Shown here: piece by piece, positions 40,175 through 57,280 of the stretch
Layout of the letters: each line of letters starts with the position of its first letter
Numbering within the stretch: the first letter of the stretch is position 1
Position numbers and translations under genes: made by a program
Notes under the pieces: model-generated
The model's database searches: none
Told to the model about the DNA's origin: nothing
What the model saw: the letters and a program-made list of their open reading frames with translations, nothing else
IMG/VR virus record: IMGVR_UViG_2703718869_000013
Span: 1-64,000 of that record
Source of the DNA: a virus
Lineage: Duplodnaviria; Heunggongvirae; Uroviricota; Caudoviricetes
DNA length: 64,000 nt
Direction: 5' to 3' (one strand)

Positions 40175-41020
40175 TCACCCTCTGAATCCTACCGGTATAC
40201 CCCATTGTTCGTTATCTTTATTTTTGGCTAATACCGCATTAAGAGCTTCGTTTACCGTCATGCAATGCGGTAGATTATCGAAGTTTGATATCCAGCCAAT
40301 ATCAGGAGAACGCTTGTTCTTCAGGTAAGCATATTTCCGCGCTGCCGCCTCTACTTTCTGCTTGAACTCATGTTTTTGAGCGCGTTTTTTGGATAACCGC
40401 AGATTGTCAGCCTTTGCTTTTGCTTCAGCGATCCATGAAGTCAATTTTTTGAGTCTGGTCGTTCCGGCACCGCCGGAAACTGATCTTTTTGTTTTTTTAA
40501 CTTGTGACTTCTTATTCTTTATTGCCACGTCATCCTGACAGGGGGAGGGGGTATCATTTTGACATGGGGGTGTGGATAAAAAATTAAATAAAGCCAATGT
40601 CTTAGCGAGAACAGCTTTAACCTTGGTTGCCGCTGAAGAGATCTTTAATTTGCTTTCAATCAGCGCATTTTTGGCTTGTTGTGCGAAGGCCAAAAAGGAT
40701 GGTGTAAACCGGTACAGGTTAGCGCGACGTTCACGGTGATCGCCGATAACAATCTCTACAGACAGAATTCCTTTGTTTACAGCTTCACGGAATGCACGAA
40801 CGACGGTTGATTGGCTATAACCAGTTTCTGCCGCGATCAGGCGGTGAGGCTTGTGAATGAAGTATTCACTGGTTGTTGCCGCTAGATTTGCACATTGCGA
40901 CAGGATATGCCCGGCGCTACGAGATAGACCGGAGTGTGTTACAAAGCAGGCCAATTCATAGCCAGAAAAAGTAAAATCGCTCATCGTTATACAGCTCAGG
41001 AAAGTGACTTTAGCCAGCAT
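40175..41020 (-). CDS. repL: lytic replication initiator RepL
   Basis: 281 aa, immediately downstream of kilA under a C1 operator, as in the P1 kilA-repL operon. Confidence 0.6.
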   Translation of the reverse strand: MLAKVTFLSCITMSDFTFSGYELACFVTHSGLSRSAGHILSQCANLAATTSEYFIHKPHRLIAAETGYSQSTVVRAFREAVNKGILSVEIVIGDHRERRANLYRFTPSFLAFAQQAKNALIESKLKISSAATKVKAVLAKTLALFNFLSTPPCQNDTPSPCQDDVAIKNKKSQVKKTKRSVSGGAGTTRLKKLTSWIAEAKAKADNLRLSKKRAQKHEFKQKVEAAARKYAYLKNKRSPDIGWISNFDNLPHCMTVNEALNAVLAKNKDNEQWGIPVGFRG

Positions 41021-41049
41021 TACAATGCTGGTGGTTCTTACTACGTCTG

Positions 41050-41850
41050 TTAGCGCGTTGCCGCGACAGGTACCAGCACACCAGCATCAAGCAATCGCTT
41101 CATCAGCCACTGCTGACCTTTGCCGGTTATACGAGTCGTGAAAGAAATCCTGCTTCCATTGCTTGTATCGATCACGGTTTCTTTAAGGGTGAAATACCCA
41201 CGGGATATGTATTCTTGTTTGGGGACGTTCCTGCGTTCACCGGTTGCGATCAGAATTCCGTTATCACGCAACCAGGTGAAGAGATAGTTTTGGCCCAGGC
41301 CGAGCACTTTGGCATAGTTGCCGATTAGAACCCCGCTGGCGGTAGCAACGCGTTCGGCGAATTCGACTTTAGGCGCATCCATAAGCATTTTTTGCTCCAG
41401 CCGTTGCTTTTGCTCTGCCAGGTCGGCAGCCAAACGGAGAGCTTCAGGGAGACTCTGCGGAATAGCAGGTTGTAATCTTCCGGCTCGATAGTCGATAAAT
41501 GTCTGGTTTACCTTCAGCCGAAACGCGGGAGAAATCCAGCCTGCGTACTCCACAGCGAGCAATTCATGGGCAAACGTACCGCCGCCACGGCCTTCGAACG
41601 AAACTATGCAATTCTGCATAGTTTCTTTTTCAAGCTCTTCGATGAGCTGTTTAGCTGACAGCGTTCTTAGCCATTGAGCTGGCGCTTTATGGGCACCGAG
41701 TCCGCTCGCTCTGTGTAGAGCATTAAGGTTGTAACGGCCAGCGCGGTCGGTCGTAATTTCAACACCACAAATAACGGGCAGAGTGGTTGAAGGATCGACA
41801 TTTTGATGAAGGTTTGATATATTCATATCCGCATTGAATGTTTGTTGCAT
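41050..41850 (-). CDS. kilA: KilA (KilA-N domain plus antirepressor KilA-C domain)
   Basis: N-terminal RAGRYNLNALHRASG...WLR pattern; C-terminal domain shared with the Ant proteins; 266 aa. Confidence 0.6.
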   Translation of the reverse strand: MQQTFNADMNISNLHQNVDPSTTLPVICGVEITTDRAGRYNLNALHRASGLGAHKAPAQWLRTLSAKQLIEELEKETMQNCIVSFEGRGGGTFAHELLAVEYAGWISPAFRLKVNQTFIDYRAGRLQPAIPQSLPEALRLAADLAEQKQRLEQKMLMDAPKVEFAERVATASGVLIGNYAKVLGLGQNYLFTWLRDNGILIATGERRNVPKQEYISRGYFTLKETVIDTSNGSRISFTTRITGKGQQWLMKRLLDAGVLVPVAATR

Positions 41851-41923
41851 TTTTTCTCCAAATTTGCATCAACCTTCAATCACCAGCTCGAAATGGTGAT
41901 TCTTTGCACTTAGAAAACGAAAT

Positions 41924-41940
41924 TTATTAGAGCAAATTTT
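41924..41940 (-). promoter_or_regulatory. C1-type operator (16/17) upstream of kilA-repL
   Basis: aaatttattagagcaaa. Confidence 0.55.
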
Positions 41941-42014
41941 TCTGACTCGATCCAGATCGGGTTGGACGATCTGCTCAGAAACCTGCCAGTTTGCTGGCAG
42001 GTTTTTTTCTTTTG

Positions 42015-43058
42015 TTAACCTATTGCTACTGGTTTTAACAAACCAGCATCAAGTAGCTTGCGAGTTAACCACTGCTGGCCTTTACCCGTTAATTGGGGCG
42101 TCAGCCGTATCTGGTAGCCATTTTCATCATCCAGCACCACTTCTTTCACCGTGAAATACCCGGCGTTAATGTACTGCTGGCGCGGTACGTTTTTGCGCGC
42201 ACCAAAAGCCATGAGAATGCCGTTCTGGCGCAACCATGAGAAAAGGGCGTTTTGCTTAAGTCCAACGACCTTTGCAAAGTTCCCGATCAGGATTCCATTA
42301 GCCGCTGATACCCGGTCGGCAAAATCGACTTTAGGGGCTGCGGCCACCAGCTGTTGTTCCAACTGCATTTTCTGTTCTGCCAACTCGGCAGCCAGGCGTA
42401 GAGCTTCTGGTAATGTTTGGGGGATCGATGGGGTAGGGGAGTTTGCCTGCTGCAATTCTTCCAGTTTGTCGATCAGCGAACGGCGGACCGCTTTTGACTC
42501 GCGCGCGGCGACTCGCAAGGCTTGTTTGTAGGTCATGGTGATGACCTCAAAAGAGCGCCCAGCCCTTGTGCCATGGGATTTTGCACTTTTTGTGTAAAAT
42601 TCACCTTCAAGTTCATCGAGTATTTTTTCGATGAATTTATTGTTTCTAACCTCTGGTTCTCCACATAACTTGCGTGCCTCATTGACCATCTTCAACAATG
42701 TTTGGCTGTCGATTGTGTCTCCGGTGTTGGGGATGACATTCACGGCTGGTGTTGGCGTAGCTGACGTAACAGGTGCTGGTTTCTCAACATTCAAATTTTT
42801 ACCGGTCACTCTATGTGCCTCCTTTCTCATTTCTGCTGCCACCGTTGCGTAACGTAGACGTCCTTGTTCAATCAAATAATCCCTGATCTCGGCTATCAGT
42901 AGCCTGTTGATCACAGCCTTATCTGTTCGGGTATAAAAACGCCTGGTTATCATGAAATAGTTGGCAATTGCGCCGGGGATCTCCCGTGTCGGCATACAGG
43001 CAGTATGCAGGGCGATTGCTTCGGCTATGTCATTACGGGTGACGAGAGGTTTTTTCAT
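42015..43058 (-). CDS. ant: antirepressor Ant (immI copy 2)
   Basis: 347 aa, paralog of 14337..15371 with near-identical C-terminal half. Confidence 0.65.
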   Translation of the reverse strand: MKKPLVTRNDIAEAIALHTACMPTREIPGAIANYFMITRRFYTRTDKAVINRLLIAEIRDYLIEQGRLRYATVAAEMRKEAHRVTGKNLNVEKPAPVTSATPTPAVNVIPNTGDTIDSQTLLKMVNEARKLCGEPEVRNNKFIEKILDELEGEFYTKSAKSHGTRAGRSFEVITMTYKQALRVAARESKAVRRSLIDKLEELQQANSPTPSIPQTLPEALRLAAELAEQKMQLEQQLVAAAPKVDFADRVSAANGILIGNFAKVVGLKQNALFSWLRQNGILMAFGARKNVPRQQYINAGYFTVKEVVLDDENGYQIRLTPQLTGKGQQWLTRKLLDAGLLKPVAIG

Positions 43059-43276
43059 AAAACCCCCTGAACGTCGGCAGAGAAGGGGAGGTTCCAGTAA
43101 CTAAGTGAATTGCGCGAGTTAGTTGAAAAACGGGCAGTAAAAATGCAGGGGCCATCAGGCAATTGAGAGCGTGCTTCGTCTTCTGTTGCTGCGATAACGA
43201 AGTGATAGTGGTGTTTTTTACAGGAATAGAAACGCCAGATGAATTCTTGGCGTGCGCAAGGATTGGCATTAACCAT
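43055..43276 (-). CDS. icd: Icd-like small protein (73 aa), copy 2
   Basis: paralog of 15368..15589. Confidence 0.45.
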   Translation of the reverse strand: MVNANPCARQEFIWRFYSCKKHHYHFVIAATEDEARSQLPDGPCIFTARFSTNSRNSLSYWNLPFSADVQGVL

Positions 43277-43490
43277 AGTTACGGCCTCACTAACAGGTTT
43301 AACAACCTGCTACCCGCTGTCAAACAGGTGGCAGGACGTGACAGGGTTGACAGACTGGCGTTAGTGAAACCAGCAGGCCGAAGCCTCCCCATCACGCCCC
43401 ACCATAATTCGGGCGTAACGCGGTTTACGGACACAAAAATACCGCAATATCGGAAATCTGCGGTTGTCCGCACTAACATTCAGGCTGTCA
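43275..43490 (-). ncRNA. c4: c4-like antisense RNA region (immI copy 2), approximate bounds
   Basis: sites 43287..43294, 43360..43366, 43471..43478 carry compensatory changes relative to copy 1. Confidence 0.5.
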
Positions 43491-43589
43491 AACCTGGTCG
43501 CAGAATTTGCTACGACGGCAGAACTATAAGCCTGAACGATTAAAAGGTCAATATGATGCGAAAAGATAGCATTCGCGACTTAAAAATAC

Positions 43590-43606
43590 AAATTTATTAG
43601 AGCATT
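43590..43606 (-). promoter_or_regulatory. C1-type operator (16/17) upstream of immI copy 2
   Basis: aaatttattagagcatt. Confidence 0.5.
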
Positions 43607-43700
43607 ATTTGTGCAATAAATGCACAAATGGATCTAATAACCTCTTTTTTTTAAAGGCGAAAATATGTACCCTAAATGGGTTATAAGGCAGGTGAGATTA

Positions 43701-43832
43701 TAATGAGAAGACTATTACTACCGTTATTATTTATGGCCGGGACTGTTAATGCAGCATCAAGCGTAAAGGAGATTTGTACCGATTATACGAAATACCTTGG
43801 GCACGTTTACGCCTTTGCGATCAATGACTATT
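43701..43832 (+). CDS. small secreted peptide (43 aa precursor with signal peptide)
   Basis: MRRLLLPLLFMAGTVNA signal-like N-terminus; not in ORF track (under 60 aa). Confidence 0.3.
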
Positions 43833-43855
43833 AATCCATGCGTAGGAGTGGATTT

Positions 43856-44173
43856 ATGCTGATTCGTTTGTTTTTAGTGCTTTCCTTTTTAACATTTAAT
43901 GTTTTTGCTGATGAAGTTGACTTTTCGAAGGTAGATTGCAATTCAGTGGAAACAAGAAAAGCTCTTATTGAAGAATATAACGAAATATTATCGTCATATG
44001 GAATAACAGTGGTTGATTCTTATAATCAAAAAACTATTCAGAAAGGAATAAATAAACTGGTTTGTTATGGGGTTTACCAATATTCAGATGGCTCTTCGGA
44101 GTATGTTATTTATAAAGCATACCCAAATAGTCTTGGTGAATTGATTAGTGAGTTTAAACCGATTAATGAGTGA
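43856..44173 (+). CDS. secreted protein (105 aa precursor)
   Basis: AGGAGTG RBS; N-terminal signal peptide MLIRLFLVLSFLTFNVFA. Confidence 0.45.
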   Translation: MLIRLFLVLSFLTFNVFADEVDFSKVDCNSVETRKALIEEYNEILSSYGITVVDSYNQKTIQKGINKLVCYGVYQYSDGSSEYVIYKAYPNSLGELISEFKPINE

Positions 44174-44180
44174 ATGGAAA

Positions 44181-44960
44181 ATGAAATTATTTAATGTAAT
44201 AACATTTTGTTGTGCTATTTTTGCTGGAAGCGCGATAGCTGATAATAAATTGCCAGATTGGCTTTCTACTTCAAAAAAAGATTATGATTTAGTAAGGGTG
44301 TTCTATTTGTCTGGATTTGCCTCGAAAGCAATGAATAATCAATTTGGTTATCATTTTCCATCTGAGTTGGTTAATGATTTTAAAGATAATGAATTTGCCG
44401 CTCAGGAAAAATGGAATACAATTTCAATTGTATATGGTGAAATAAAATCCATAAGAATGGTGAATAATGAACCAATTGTAGAGTTATTTACTCCAGGGGA
44501 AAATGCAACGCCACTAAATTATATCAAATTGAAAGTGTTGGATTCAAAACAAAACTCTCTGTTAAAACTAAAAAAAGGGGATGATATATATGCAGTGTGC
44601 TCCGGTGCTAATTTTAGGTTAGTGCCAATTCTGAGCAACTGCACTCCAGCAACTGACGTCATTGATGCTGCACTCTCTTTTTCTGGTGAATATATGTTCC
44701 CTGCTTTTGATTCTTTTTCACCTACTAAGCAAAACGTCAAATATATATTCACAAATCAAGATCCTGTTCAGATGATGAATTTTATAGGGTACCTATCCTT
44801 AGTCGATACAACGAAGGATAAGAATAAAATGGATATGGTTCGTAAGTGTACGCCTTGGAAGCCGGAATGTTCACAACAATTCGTTGATGTAATGGAAGGA
44901 TTTGATAACATCATGTATAAATATGAGAGGGAATTTAAAAATTACATAGAATTAAAATAG
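44181..44960 (+). CDS. secreted protein (259 aa precursor)
   Basis: signal peptide MKLFNVITFCCAIFAGSAIA; AT-rich. Confidence 0.45.
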   Translation: MKLFNVITFCCAIFAGSAIADNKLPDWLSTSKKDYDLVRVFYLSGFASKAMNNQFGYHFPSELVNDFKDNEFAAQEKWNTISIVYGEIKSIRMVNNEPIVELFTPGENATPLNYIKLKVLDSKQNSLLKLKKGDDIYAVCSGANFRLVPILSNCTPATDVIDAALSFSGEYMFPAFDSFSPTKQNVKYIFTNQDPVQMMNFIGYLSLVDTTKDKNKMDMVRKCTPWKPECSQQFVDVMEGFDNIMYKYEREFKNYIELK

Positions 44961-44993
44961 TATTTGAAATGATAGTCAATTTAAGTTTTAACA

Positions 44994-45024
44994 AAACGCC
45001 CATTAAAGGGCGTTTTATTGTTTT
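44994..45024 (+). terminator. intrinsic terminator
   Basis: aaacgccc-attaaa-gggcgttt then tattgtttt. Confidence 0.6.
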
Positions 45025-45183
45025 ACTCAAAACAACCTGACTCAAAACAACCTGATTGTGTGATAACCATATGATACTCCTCATTCCATCTACACTACCT
45101 ACTCTAACTTAATGATACCATATTACTCCCGGACGGCAATATTCCCACTCAATGGACAAATGACTACTCGTAGAATCGGGTAA

Positions 45184-45774
<591 letters not shown>

Positions 45775-45784
45775 GGGGGCTGAT

Positions 45785-46396
45785 ATGGGGCTTAATGTTG
45801 CTTCAGTAAAGTCTTATGTATCTTCGGCATTAACGACGACATTATTTGGCTCCGGCGTTGGTGAGCGGGAAGTTGGTAAGCTGACGTCAATCATCATGAA
45901 CAAAATGCTGTTCGCGCAAGGATGGCAGTTCTCTGTCGAAGTTGATGGTCTGGAGGGGGCAGACTTCTTTGCTAAAGACATTACCTACCACGATTACAGC
46001 ATCGAATATGAAACGATTAAAATCGGCGGAGGGAATATCCTTCAGCCAACGGAGCGTTCGCCTGGGCAGATAACAATGATGGTCAGGGACACTGTTGATG
46101 GCCTCGTTTTGGACTGGTTTAAGACGGCAAAAAGTCGGGTGATCAATCCTGACGGTACCGGGAACATACCATCTAAATATTTGCTCAATGTGCGTATTTA
46201 TCGGTTGCTGTCTTCCGGCTTAACCAAACTGGAAAATGAGATGACGGTATTCCCGGTCACTACCGGCGATGTCACCTATGCGCGGGATCAGGTTACGGAA
46301 TTTAAGTCATTCCCAATGACCTTCGCATTGCACAGCACGTTTAACCAATCCTCAAGTTCTTTGGCTTCCCTTCTGGGCTTTAGTTTTTCTCTTTGA
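45785..46396 (+). CDS. putative tail tube protein (203 aa)
   Basis: size and position upstream of the tape-measure-like gene. Confidence 0.4.
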   Translation: MGLNVASVKSYVSSALTTTLFGSGVGEREVGKLTSIIMNKMLFAQGWQFSVEVDGLEGADFFAKDITYHDYSIEYETIKIGGGNILQPTERSPGQITMMVRDTVDGLVLDWFKTAKSRVINPDGTGNIPSKYLLNVRIYRLLSSGLTKLENEMTVFPVTTGDVTYARDQVTEFKSFPMTFALHSTFNQSSSSLASLLGFSFSL

Positions 46397-56702: not shown

Positions 56703-57280
56703 TGACATTCAGAATGAGTGAACAATCACGGACCATAAAAATTTATAATCTACTGGCTGGAACCAATGAGTTTATTGGTGAAGGTGATGCATACATTCCA
56801 CCTCATACAGGTCTGCCTGCAAACAGTACCGATATTGCCCCGCCAGATATTCCGGCTGGCTTCGTGGCCGTTTTCAACAGTGATGAGGCATCGTGGAATC
56901 TCGTTGAAGACCATCGGGGAAAAACCGTCTATGACGTGGCTTCCGGCGACGCGTTATTTATTTCTGAACTTGGCCCATTACCGGAAAATGTCACCTGGTT
57001 ATCCCCGGAAGGGGAGTTTCAGAAGTGGAACGGCACAGCCTGGGTGAAAGATGCAGAAGCAGAAAAACTGTTCCGGATCCGGAAGGCGGAAGAAACAAAA
57101 AACAGCCTGATGCAGATGGCCAGTGAGCATATTGCGCCACTTCAGGATGCCGTAGATTTGGATATTGCGACGGAGGAAGAGGCATCGTTACTGACTGCAT
57201 GGAAGACATATCGGGTATTGTTGAATCGTGTTGATACAACAGTAGCATCGGATGTTGAGTGGCCAGTCGCCCCGCAATAA
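56702..57280 (+). CDS. tail fibre assembly protein
   Basis: 192 aa, typical Tfa-like protein directly after the fibre gene. Confidence 0.7.

Follow-up and report, generated by a model that had tools for sequence, protein, structure and literature searches.

The immI region of phage P1 is the textbook example of antisense-RNA control of an antirepressor, and the heteroimmunity of P1 and P7 is the classic case of a specificity set by a few bases. In P1 the region reads Op51-c4-icd-ant1/ant2 (annotation of NC_005856; reportedly described by Heisig and colleagues in 1989 and by Citron and Schuster in 1990). It is established that the C4 RNA acts by pairing with its targets and that this has a role in the heteroimmunity of P1 and P7 (Citron & Schuster 1990, in the summaries of PMC12197685 and PMC8201110). 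In the immI region of Salmonella phage P22, a secondary immunity region, the sar antisense RNA limits antirepressor synthesis (PMC12197685). The available passages on the P1-like pSvP1 (Venturini et al. 2019, PMC6906374) and the D6-like pYU39_89 (PMC6799933) mention extra icd-ant or c4-icd regions in passing. Here we describe a stretch of 64,000 nucleotides from a virus of the Caudoviricetes (IMG/VR record IMGVR_UViG_2703718869_000013, positions 1 to 64,000; hereafter the window), which carries two complete immI modules, copy 2 at the canonical locus and copy 1 elsewhere.

Positions 41000-46000 of the window align over their full length with phage P1 (NC_005856) at 97.3% identity and with a P1-like phage at 98.6%, and positions 13900-16400 are 99.9% identical to plasmid pF1273-3 of Escherichia coli O157:H7 (NZ_CP038378.1). 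On the strength of these identities, we take the window to be ~64 kb of a roughly 100-kb P1-like phage-plasmid. Our preferred reading of the two modules, held at a probability of about 65%, is that copy 2 is the ancestral, canonical module and copy 1 an acquired one with a different C4 key, and that together they would supply two C4 repressors, giving broader immunity as well as escape from immunity.

Anatomy of the two immI modules

An earlier note, made from the bare sequence, had placed two immI copies in this element, and both are complete where it put them. It had also recognized the place of copy 2 next to kilA-repL as that of P1, which is borne out by the same gene order at 97.3% identity over 5 kb, and its coordinates for the copy 2 operator, 43590..43606, are exact. 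Moving the P1 annotation onto copy 2 at a constant offset of 37999 gives exactly the P1 arrangement, repL-kilA-Op53-ant-icd-c4-Op51 followed by simABC, with simA, simB and simC on the far flank as in P1. The features of copy 2 are as follows.

43590-43606, minus strand: C1 operator Op51 (Oc4), AATGCTCTAATAAATTT, one mismatch to the consensus; coincides with the annotated P1 Op51/Oc4
43563-43591, minus strand: promoter P51a, overlapping Op51; identical to the annotated P1 P2c4
43523-43551, minus strand: promoter P51b; identical to the annotated P1 P1c4
43485-43491, minus strand: upstream C4 target a1, TTGACAG (P1 annotation)
43471-43477, minus strand: upstream C4 target b1, GTTAGTG (P1 annotation)
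43477-43529, minus strand: c4-a1b1 element (Rfam RF03163, 55.5 bits)
43327-43403, minus strand: C4 antisense RNA, 77 nt, identical in sequence to P1 C4
43360-43366, minus strand: C4 loop b', CACUAAC
43347-43353, minus strand: C4 loop a', CUGUCAA
43324-43409, minus strand: Rfam C4 match (RF01695, 68.8 bits)
43317-43323, minus strand: downstream target a2
43287-43294, minus strand: downstream target b2, overlapping the icd ribosome-binding site
43055-43276, minus strand: icd, 73 aa (open reading frame and P1 annotation)
42015-43058, minus strand: ant1, 347 aa, with ant2 nested in frame from a GTG at 42809 after AAGGAGG

The two modules form direct repeats (14347-15850 and 42025-43537) of 81% identity; their Ant proteins are 77% and their Icd proteins 81% identical. 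Parts and order are alike throughout, from a C1-repressed and an unrepressed promoter through a1/b1 and the C4 RNA to a2/b2 over the icd ribosome-binding site and an icd translationally coupled to nested ant1/ant2. Copy 1 is made up as follows.

15906-15922, minus strand: C1 operator, ATTGCTCTAATAATTTT, one mismatch
15890-15906, plus strand: second, converging C1 operator, TTTGCTCTAATAAATCA, three mismatches
15836-15864, minus strand: P51b-equivalent promoter TTGATC-17-TATAGT, with no operator over it; aligns with P1 P1c4
15798-15804, minus strand: upstream target a1, TTGACAG
15784-15790, minus strand: upstream target b1, GTACATG
15790-15842, minus strand: c4-a1b1 element (Rfam RF03163, 52 bits; gathering score 46.7)
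15640-15716, minus strand: C4 antisense RNA
15673-15679, minus strand: C4 loop b', CAUGUAC
15660-15666, minus strand: C4 loop a', CUGUCAA
15637-15722, minus strand: Rfam C4 match (RF01695, 70.7 bits; gathering score 45)
15630-15636, minus strand: downstream target a2
15601-15607, minus strand: downstream target b2, GTACATG, followed by the icd Shine-Dalgarno sequence GAGG
15368-15589, minus strand: icd, 73 aa, 81% identical to that of copy 2; its stop overlaps the ant start (ATGA, 15368-15371)
14337-15371, minus strand: ant1, 344 aa, with ant2 nested in frame from an ATG at 15122 after AAGGAGG
14310-14331: bidirectional terminator hairpin between gene 5 and ant
14302-15925, minus strand: exchangeable immI cassette, operator to terminator, the stretch common to modules between mat and cra in other plasmids

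The minimum-free-energy fold of the copy 1 C4 RNA (-44.9 kcal/mol) has the shape of P1 C4, and its a' CTGTCAA and b' CATGTAC are perfect complements of a2 TTGACAG and b2 GTACATG. The ATG of Ant2 sits exactly at the position of the P1 Ant2 GTG and is a homologous start. Operator over promoter, C4 fold, a1/b1, a2/b2 and coupled icd-ant all mark copy 1 as an immI of the P1 type; what it lacks is the canonical position, between the sim (in P7, upf50) genes and kilA-repL, which is no part of the functional definition.

The upstream end of copy 1 is distinctive. Its two operators (15890-15922) have perfect 12-nt inverted arms and overlap by 1 bp. Both overlap a P51a-equivalent promoter, TTGATT-17-TACCAT, the second lying within the promoter spacer, and such pairing suggests a tighter C1 control of the upstream promoter. 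No terminator-like site was found between the dbn stop and these operators; because of this, read-through from the ban-dbn operon into copy 1 would be possible after inactivation of C1.

An index of public assemblies contains the exact copy 1 Icd protein in 1237 blocks, and in 9 of the 10 places listed it stands between dbn and gene 5 as icd-ant, the remaining one being rearranged. Within 14590-14839 and 42268-42517, the two modules have exact direct-repeat stretches of 73, 71 and 59 bp in common, 27.7 kb apart, lengths that suffice for RecA-dependent deletion or for resolution into two circles. Going by the P1 map, the segment between the modules would presumably include the plasmid replicon.

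Recognition sequences of the C4 RNAs

We aligned the leaders of copy 1, copy 2, P1, P7, D6 and one E. fergusonii module. The differences between copies 1 and 2 cluster at b1, the C4 loop b' and b2, the c4 region being otherwise 92-100% identical. At b1/b'/b2, copy 1 reads GTACATG/CATGTAC/GTACATG, and copy 2 reads GTTAGTG/CACTAAC/GTTAGTG, as does P1; three bases have changed, and the changes compensate each other. The a sites (TTGACAG/CTGTCAA) are identical in the two copies. Relative to P1, P7 differs at both a and b, and D6 at b only, with yet another sequence.

Folding predictions agree with this picture. The two C4 RNAs fold identically, with b' exposed in a hairpin loop. The predicted duplex of the b loop with a2b2 amounts to about -12 kcal/mol for the cognate and -4.5 to -6.1 kcal/mol for the non-cognate pairs, and the duplex with a1b1 to -8.7 to -8.9 and -3.3 to -5.3 kcal/mol, respectively, whereas the predicted a-loop duplexes are equal for both copies. 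Judged by these recognition sequences, copy 1 is a differently keyed module and not a duplicate of copy 2.

Co-resident modules in related plasmids

PLSDB contains 686 c4 cores in 575 plasmids. In pE2865-1, a close relative of the plasmid in the window, there are four icd-ant modules, all differently keyed. The module between mat and cra has a' CUGCUAA and b' CAUGUAC, the canonical one has the P7 key, the one between dbn and gene 5 has the copy 1 key, and the one between pacB and c1 has a divergent C4-family RNA with complementary targets of its own. In pF1273-3, outside the part covered by the window, the mat/cra site is empty.

Also outside the window, pF1273-3 carries a third immI-like module between pacB and c1 (L135, 23125-24802; NZ_CP038378.1, about 47.6-49.3 kb). 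An isrK-like element (60.8 bits) is followed there by a divergent C4-family RNA (Rfam, 75.9 bits) and an intact icd. The adjoining ant is split by a frameshift into open reading frames of 257 and 171 aa; its homolog in pE2865-1 is intact, with 370 aa.

Some co-resident pairs differ in a only and others in b only, and none are identical; hence, either loop alone may discriminate, and one mismatched loop may be enough.

Several points count against the preferred reading or limit it. The a/a' pairing is the same in both modules, so partial cross-repression is possible, and the heteroimmune phages P1 and P7 differ at both a and b, whereas copies 1 and 2 differ at b only. The absence of shared keys among co-resident pairs (0 of 25, against 3.3 expected; naive resampling P = 0.028; 12 isolate genomes with at least two typed modules) is only suggestive, because the null ignores relatedness and site-specific allele frequencies. 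Exact direct repeats of up to 73 bp in both modules could make the arrangement recombinationally unstable, and a related contig (L016) has been rearranged by way of an ant paralogue. Finally, the bare presence of a second module is already on record, since the available passages of PMC6906374 and PMC6799933 mention extra regions.

Among the alternatives, the one that survives best is that the modules are not orthogonal at all. Through the shared a/a' pairing, each C4 would repress both ant messages, leaving copy 1 as a redundant or dosage back-up. The identity of a1, a' and a2 and the equal a-loop duplexes are as expected in that case. However, three central bases of a 7-8 nt b duplex have changed jointly in three places, a pattern difficult to account for unless b pairing is under selection, and b2 is the very site that covers the icd ribosome-binding site. 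The co-resident modules of related elements, which differ in a only or b only and are never identical, speak against redundancy as well, and we consider it unlikely.

A second alternative, which we regard as slightly less probable again, is that copy 1 serves through its C4 RNA alone, which would shield the element from heteroimmune relatives, with icd-ant as silent or decaying passengers. The pF1273-3 module next to c1, with its frameshifted ant beside an intact C4-family RNA of 75.9 bits, indicates that Ant can be lost while C4 is retained. In copy 1, however, icd and ant are intact, and the Shine-Dalgarno sequence, the coupled start and the nested Ant2 start are conserved. Its Ant is still 77% identical to P1 Ant, with a nearly identical KilAC domain, and the exact Icd sequence is widespread.

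The pool of immI modules

We scanned IMG/VR first with the conserved 5' half of C4 and next with the five b' alleles that are most common; together, these scans yielded 140 modules. They combine two a' alleles (CUGUCAA and CUGCUAA) with at least six b' alleles in 11 combinations. Perfect complementarity within the module at a1, b1, a2 and b2 holds for 128 of the 140; 11 of the other 12 are incomplete or were missed by the pattern, and one is a true mismatch. By context, the modules of P1-like backbones occupy the canonical, mat/cra and dbn/gene 5 sites, in addition to a D6-like arrangement. Of the modules that have the copy 1 key (a' CUGUCAA, b' CAUGUAC), eight are at mat/cra, four at dbn/gene 5 and a single one at the canonical site; one more was left unplaced. 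We had considered the GUACAUG key as exclusive to secondary sites; as contig L136 was classed as canonical, this was weakened to mostly secondary (17 of 19).

The nearest relatives of copy 1 are modules of 90-96% identity between mat and cra in other plasmids. By sliding identity, ant is mosaic, and the reassortment of its segments does not follow the C4 key. Several stretches in the C-terminal half of ant are 97-100% identical between copies 1 and 2. Local gene conversion was rejected as their source, because foreign modules, e.g., L074, carry the same nearly identical stretches, which argues for a shared mosaic pool. Taken together, these comparisons identify copy 1 as drawn from a pool of exchangeable immI modules that appear to circulate among P1-like elements. 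The earlier note had called copy 1 displaced; it is better described as a heterospecific allele from that pool than as a displaced or duplicated copy 2.

That copy 1 arose by duplication of copy 2 in this genome and then diverged in place is very improbable. The common parts list and order, and the near-identical stretches of ant, would fit such an origin. Nevertheless, overall identity between the two copies reaches only 81%, against 98-99% between the flanks and P1. Modules at a different site in unrelated plasmids match copy 1 at 90-96% identity, and the stretches that most resemble copy 2 recur in foreign modules, L074 for example, with no lower identity. Moreover, the insertion borders are the same in E. 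albertii plasmids, where they enclose a different module content.

The single true mismatch among the 140 modules lies in L055 (IMG genome 2565956613), at the canonical site. Its b' is AUUCGU with a cognate b1, but its b2 reads GTTAGT, which matches the C4 of L085, the co-resident module at mat/cra. L055 and L085 may thus be a cross-wired pair, in which the ant of one module would be controlled in trans by the C4 of the other.

The insertion site of copy 1

The following features define the place of copy 1 in the backbone.

14257-15975, minus strand: inserted segment carrying copy 1, 1719 bp in place of 63 bp of the P1 gene 5/dbn intergenic region (blastn)
13634-14266, plus strand: baseplate gene 5, left flank; last five codons synonymously different from P1
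15969-16967, minus strand: dbn, right flank; last codon differs from P1
16967-18337, minus strand: ban helicase

The 63 bp replaced in P1 start in the last codons of gene 5, span the intergenic terminator and reach the last codon of dbn, and the flanks on either side are 98-99% identical to P1. None of the 27 matching phage records, P1 and P7 included, has the insert, all of them covering 71% of the query in two pieces. Among 789 matching PLSDB plasmids, eight have a module at this site. In 5,426 complete E. coli genomes, the uninterrupted P1-type junction occurs in 443 and a junction of gene 5 with ant in 23, and the typed modules of IMG/VR number 79 at the canonical site and four at gene 5/dbn (site C).

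Because the junction is empty in P1, P7 and most plasmids and genomes, copy 2 is best read as ancestral and copy 1 as a secondary acquisition. The earlier note had judged copy 1 in the same way, and the synteny comparison with P1-like relatives that it proposed, in which an ancestral copy 1 position would have spoken against it, found the junction uninterrupted in P1, P7 and the 443 E. coli genomes. The note had also proposed a search for recombination scars at the borders: there are none of the transposon kind, and each border falls within the final codons of a flanking gene, gene 5 or dbn. No direct or inverted repeats (target-site duplications or terminal inverted repeats) flank the borders of copy 1, and 14257-15975 contains no transposase open reading frame, which together speak against an insertion borne by a transposon or insertion sequence. 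Synonymous differences from P1 in the last five codons of gene 5 point to an origin of copy 1 by homologous exchange, the partner being a diverged relative in which this place was already occupied by a module.

Plasmid p2RM10705 of E. albertii (L160, 1938-3650) has the same gene 5/dbn insertion borders and the same converging operator pair as the window. Its module has a different key (a' CUGCUAA, b' AUUCGU), and its Ant has a different central domain. As flanks and operator pair are shared but module content is not, the gene 5/dbn site is a conserved site of cassette exchange. The reverse history, with the copy 1 position ancestral and the kilA-adjacent copy arriving later, is scarcely credible: beyond the conservation of site C between E. 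coli and E. albertii plasmids we found no support for it, whereas P1, P7 and all other phage records have immI beside kilA-repL and an uninterrupted gene 5/dbn, empty junctions outnumber filled ones by 443 to 23 complete genomes, and canonical modules outnumber those at site C by 79 to 4.

In one further contig (L016, GCA_020280785.1, 6001-7331), next to the icd of site C comes an ORF6N+ANT antirepressor of 370 aa, with c1 and cre immediately after it, an order that indicates a large rearrangement, putatively by recombination between ant paralogues.

A model for stacked immI modules

To the observed anatomy, insertion history, covariation and population pattern, the preferred reading of an ancestral copy 2 and an acquired, differently keyed copy 1 adds orthogonality and an immunity phenotype, both carried over from the immI biology of P1 and P7. 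A 1.6-kb cassette, from operator to terminator, would have recombined into the gene 5/dbn intergenic site from the pool of exchangeable modules. In a lysogen, the unrepressed promoter of each module would supply its own C4 RNA, and each C4 would keep both the icd-ant message of its module and any incoming message that carries the same a/b key from being translated. With two keys, a lysogen would then be immune to relatives of either type. For an infecting element, it would suffice that one of its two Ants escapes the resident C4 for C1 to be inactivated, and an infecting two-key phage would defeat any lysogen without one of its keys. Stacking differently keyed modules would in this way bring a gain in defense and in attack, and the two modules probably widen the range of related phages that are resisted and overcome.

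More tentatively, and at somewhat below even odds, the modules may constitute a combinatorial two-loop antisense address code. With two a and at least six b alleles, up to four mutually orthogonal modules could be housed in fixed sites (canonical, mat/cra, dbn/gene 5 and pacB/c1), with occasional cross-wiring as in L055/L085. Stacking would be driven by an arms race of immunity and anti-immunity, in which each added key extends the immunity of the lysogen and lets an infecting phage break single-key lysogens, and co-resident modules would be selected to differ.

Natural P1-like plasmids, common in Shiga toxin-producing and other E. coli, can thus carry several complete, differently keyed immI modules, and their keys make up a small combinatorial set, with recombination between fixed sites. 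Should the modules prove orthogonal, this would explain mutual exclusion and invasion among related phage-plasmids, and hence their co-circulation or the spread of resistance genes. They would also represent a natural set of orthogonal small-RNA/target pairs, whose rules, such as whether one mismatched loop is enough, would be open to simple reporter and plating assays.

KilAC proteins, C1 operators and neighboring features

The claim that the element carries three proteins with a KilAC domain, each behind a C1 operator, holds: an operator lies upstream of each, and the Pfam ANT/KilAC domain (PF03374, cut-off 25.3 bits) is found in Ant of copy 1 (E 7e-32, 110.4 bits), Ant of copy 2 (E 5e-31, 107.6 bits) and KilA (E 2e-32, 112.2 bits), the last of which has a KilA-N domain as well. 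A tblastn search of the window found no further KilAC paralogue. The kilA-repL part comprises three features.

41920-41936, minus strand: C1 operator Op53 (OrepL), which controls kilA-repL, TTTGCTCTAATAAATTT (P1 annotation)
41050-41850, minus strand: kilA, with KilA-N and KilAC domains (open reading frame, P1 annotation, Pfam)
40175-41020, minus strand: repL (open reading frame, P1 annotation)

The whole window holds 12 matches to the C1 operator, against 0.38 expected by chance. A pair of C1 operators at 21521-21548 converges and overlaps by 6 bp, with ATTACACTAATAAATTT on the plus strand and a perfect consensus on the minus strand; by position, the pair is presumably the bivalent ban-operon operator Op72.

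Upstream of ban on the minus strand, Rfam returns four tRNA matches (18615-18687 and 20623-20866), one of them (20703-20786) weak and long. Just upstream of ban, at 18715-19542, lies a gene of 275 aa with an SPFH/Band_7 domain, where the P1 record has tciA, tciB and tciC; this position looks like another variable cargo site of the backbone. At 57045-57243 on the plus strand there is a full-length Rfam match to IS009 (RF02111, 192 bits).

Comparison with known systems

The immI system itself is well known, and its multi-copy arrangement is under-described. A literature search for work analyzing more than one immI module per element, or the diversity of C4 keys, turned up passing mentions only. 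Nothing in the searchable literature was found to describe the gene 5/dbn site, the GUACAUG key, the combinatorial set of a and b alleles or the non-redundancy of co-resident modules, a description in Gilcrease & Casjens 2018 being possible.

With immI of P22, copies 1 and 2 share an analogy only, as the RNA, the regulation of the antirepressor (Mnt/Arc) and the architecture are unrelated. Closer are pSvP1 and pYU39_89, plasmid prophages which, by the available passages, have additional immI-like genes away from the canonical locus, as here. Those passages concern the res-mod/mat region or a D6 backbone; they neither analyze the specificity of C4 nor describe the gene 5/dbn site or the GUACAUG key.

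Immunity in P7 follows the same principle, its specificity being shifted by compensatory changes in the C4 loops and targets. In contrast to copy 1, which differs from P1 at b only and with another b sequence, P7 has a UUAGCAG and b GAUUGUG, both unlike P1, and it has one module, at the canonical site. The closest system is immI of P1 itself. Copy 2 is the same at 97% identity with all annotated sites, and copy 1 lacks none of its parts and keeps their order. Copy 1 departs from P1 in its b/b' sequences (GUACAUG/CAUGUAC, against GUUAGUG/CACUAAC), in its converging pair of C1 operators in place of the single Op51, in the diverged N-terminal and central parts of Ant (77% identity overall), in the ATG rather than GTG start of Ant2, and in its place between gene 5 and dbn.

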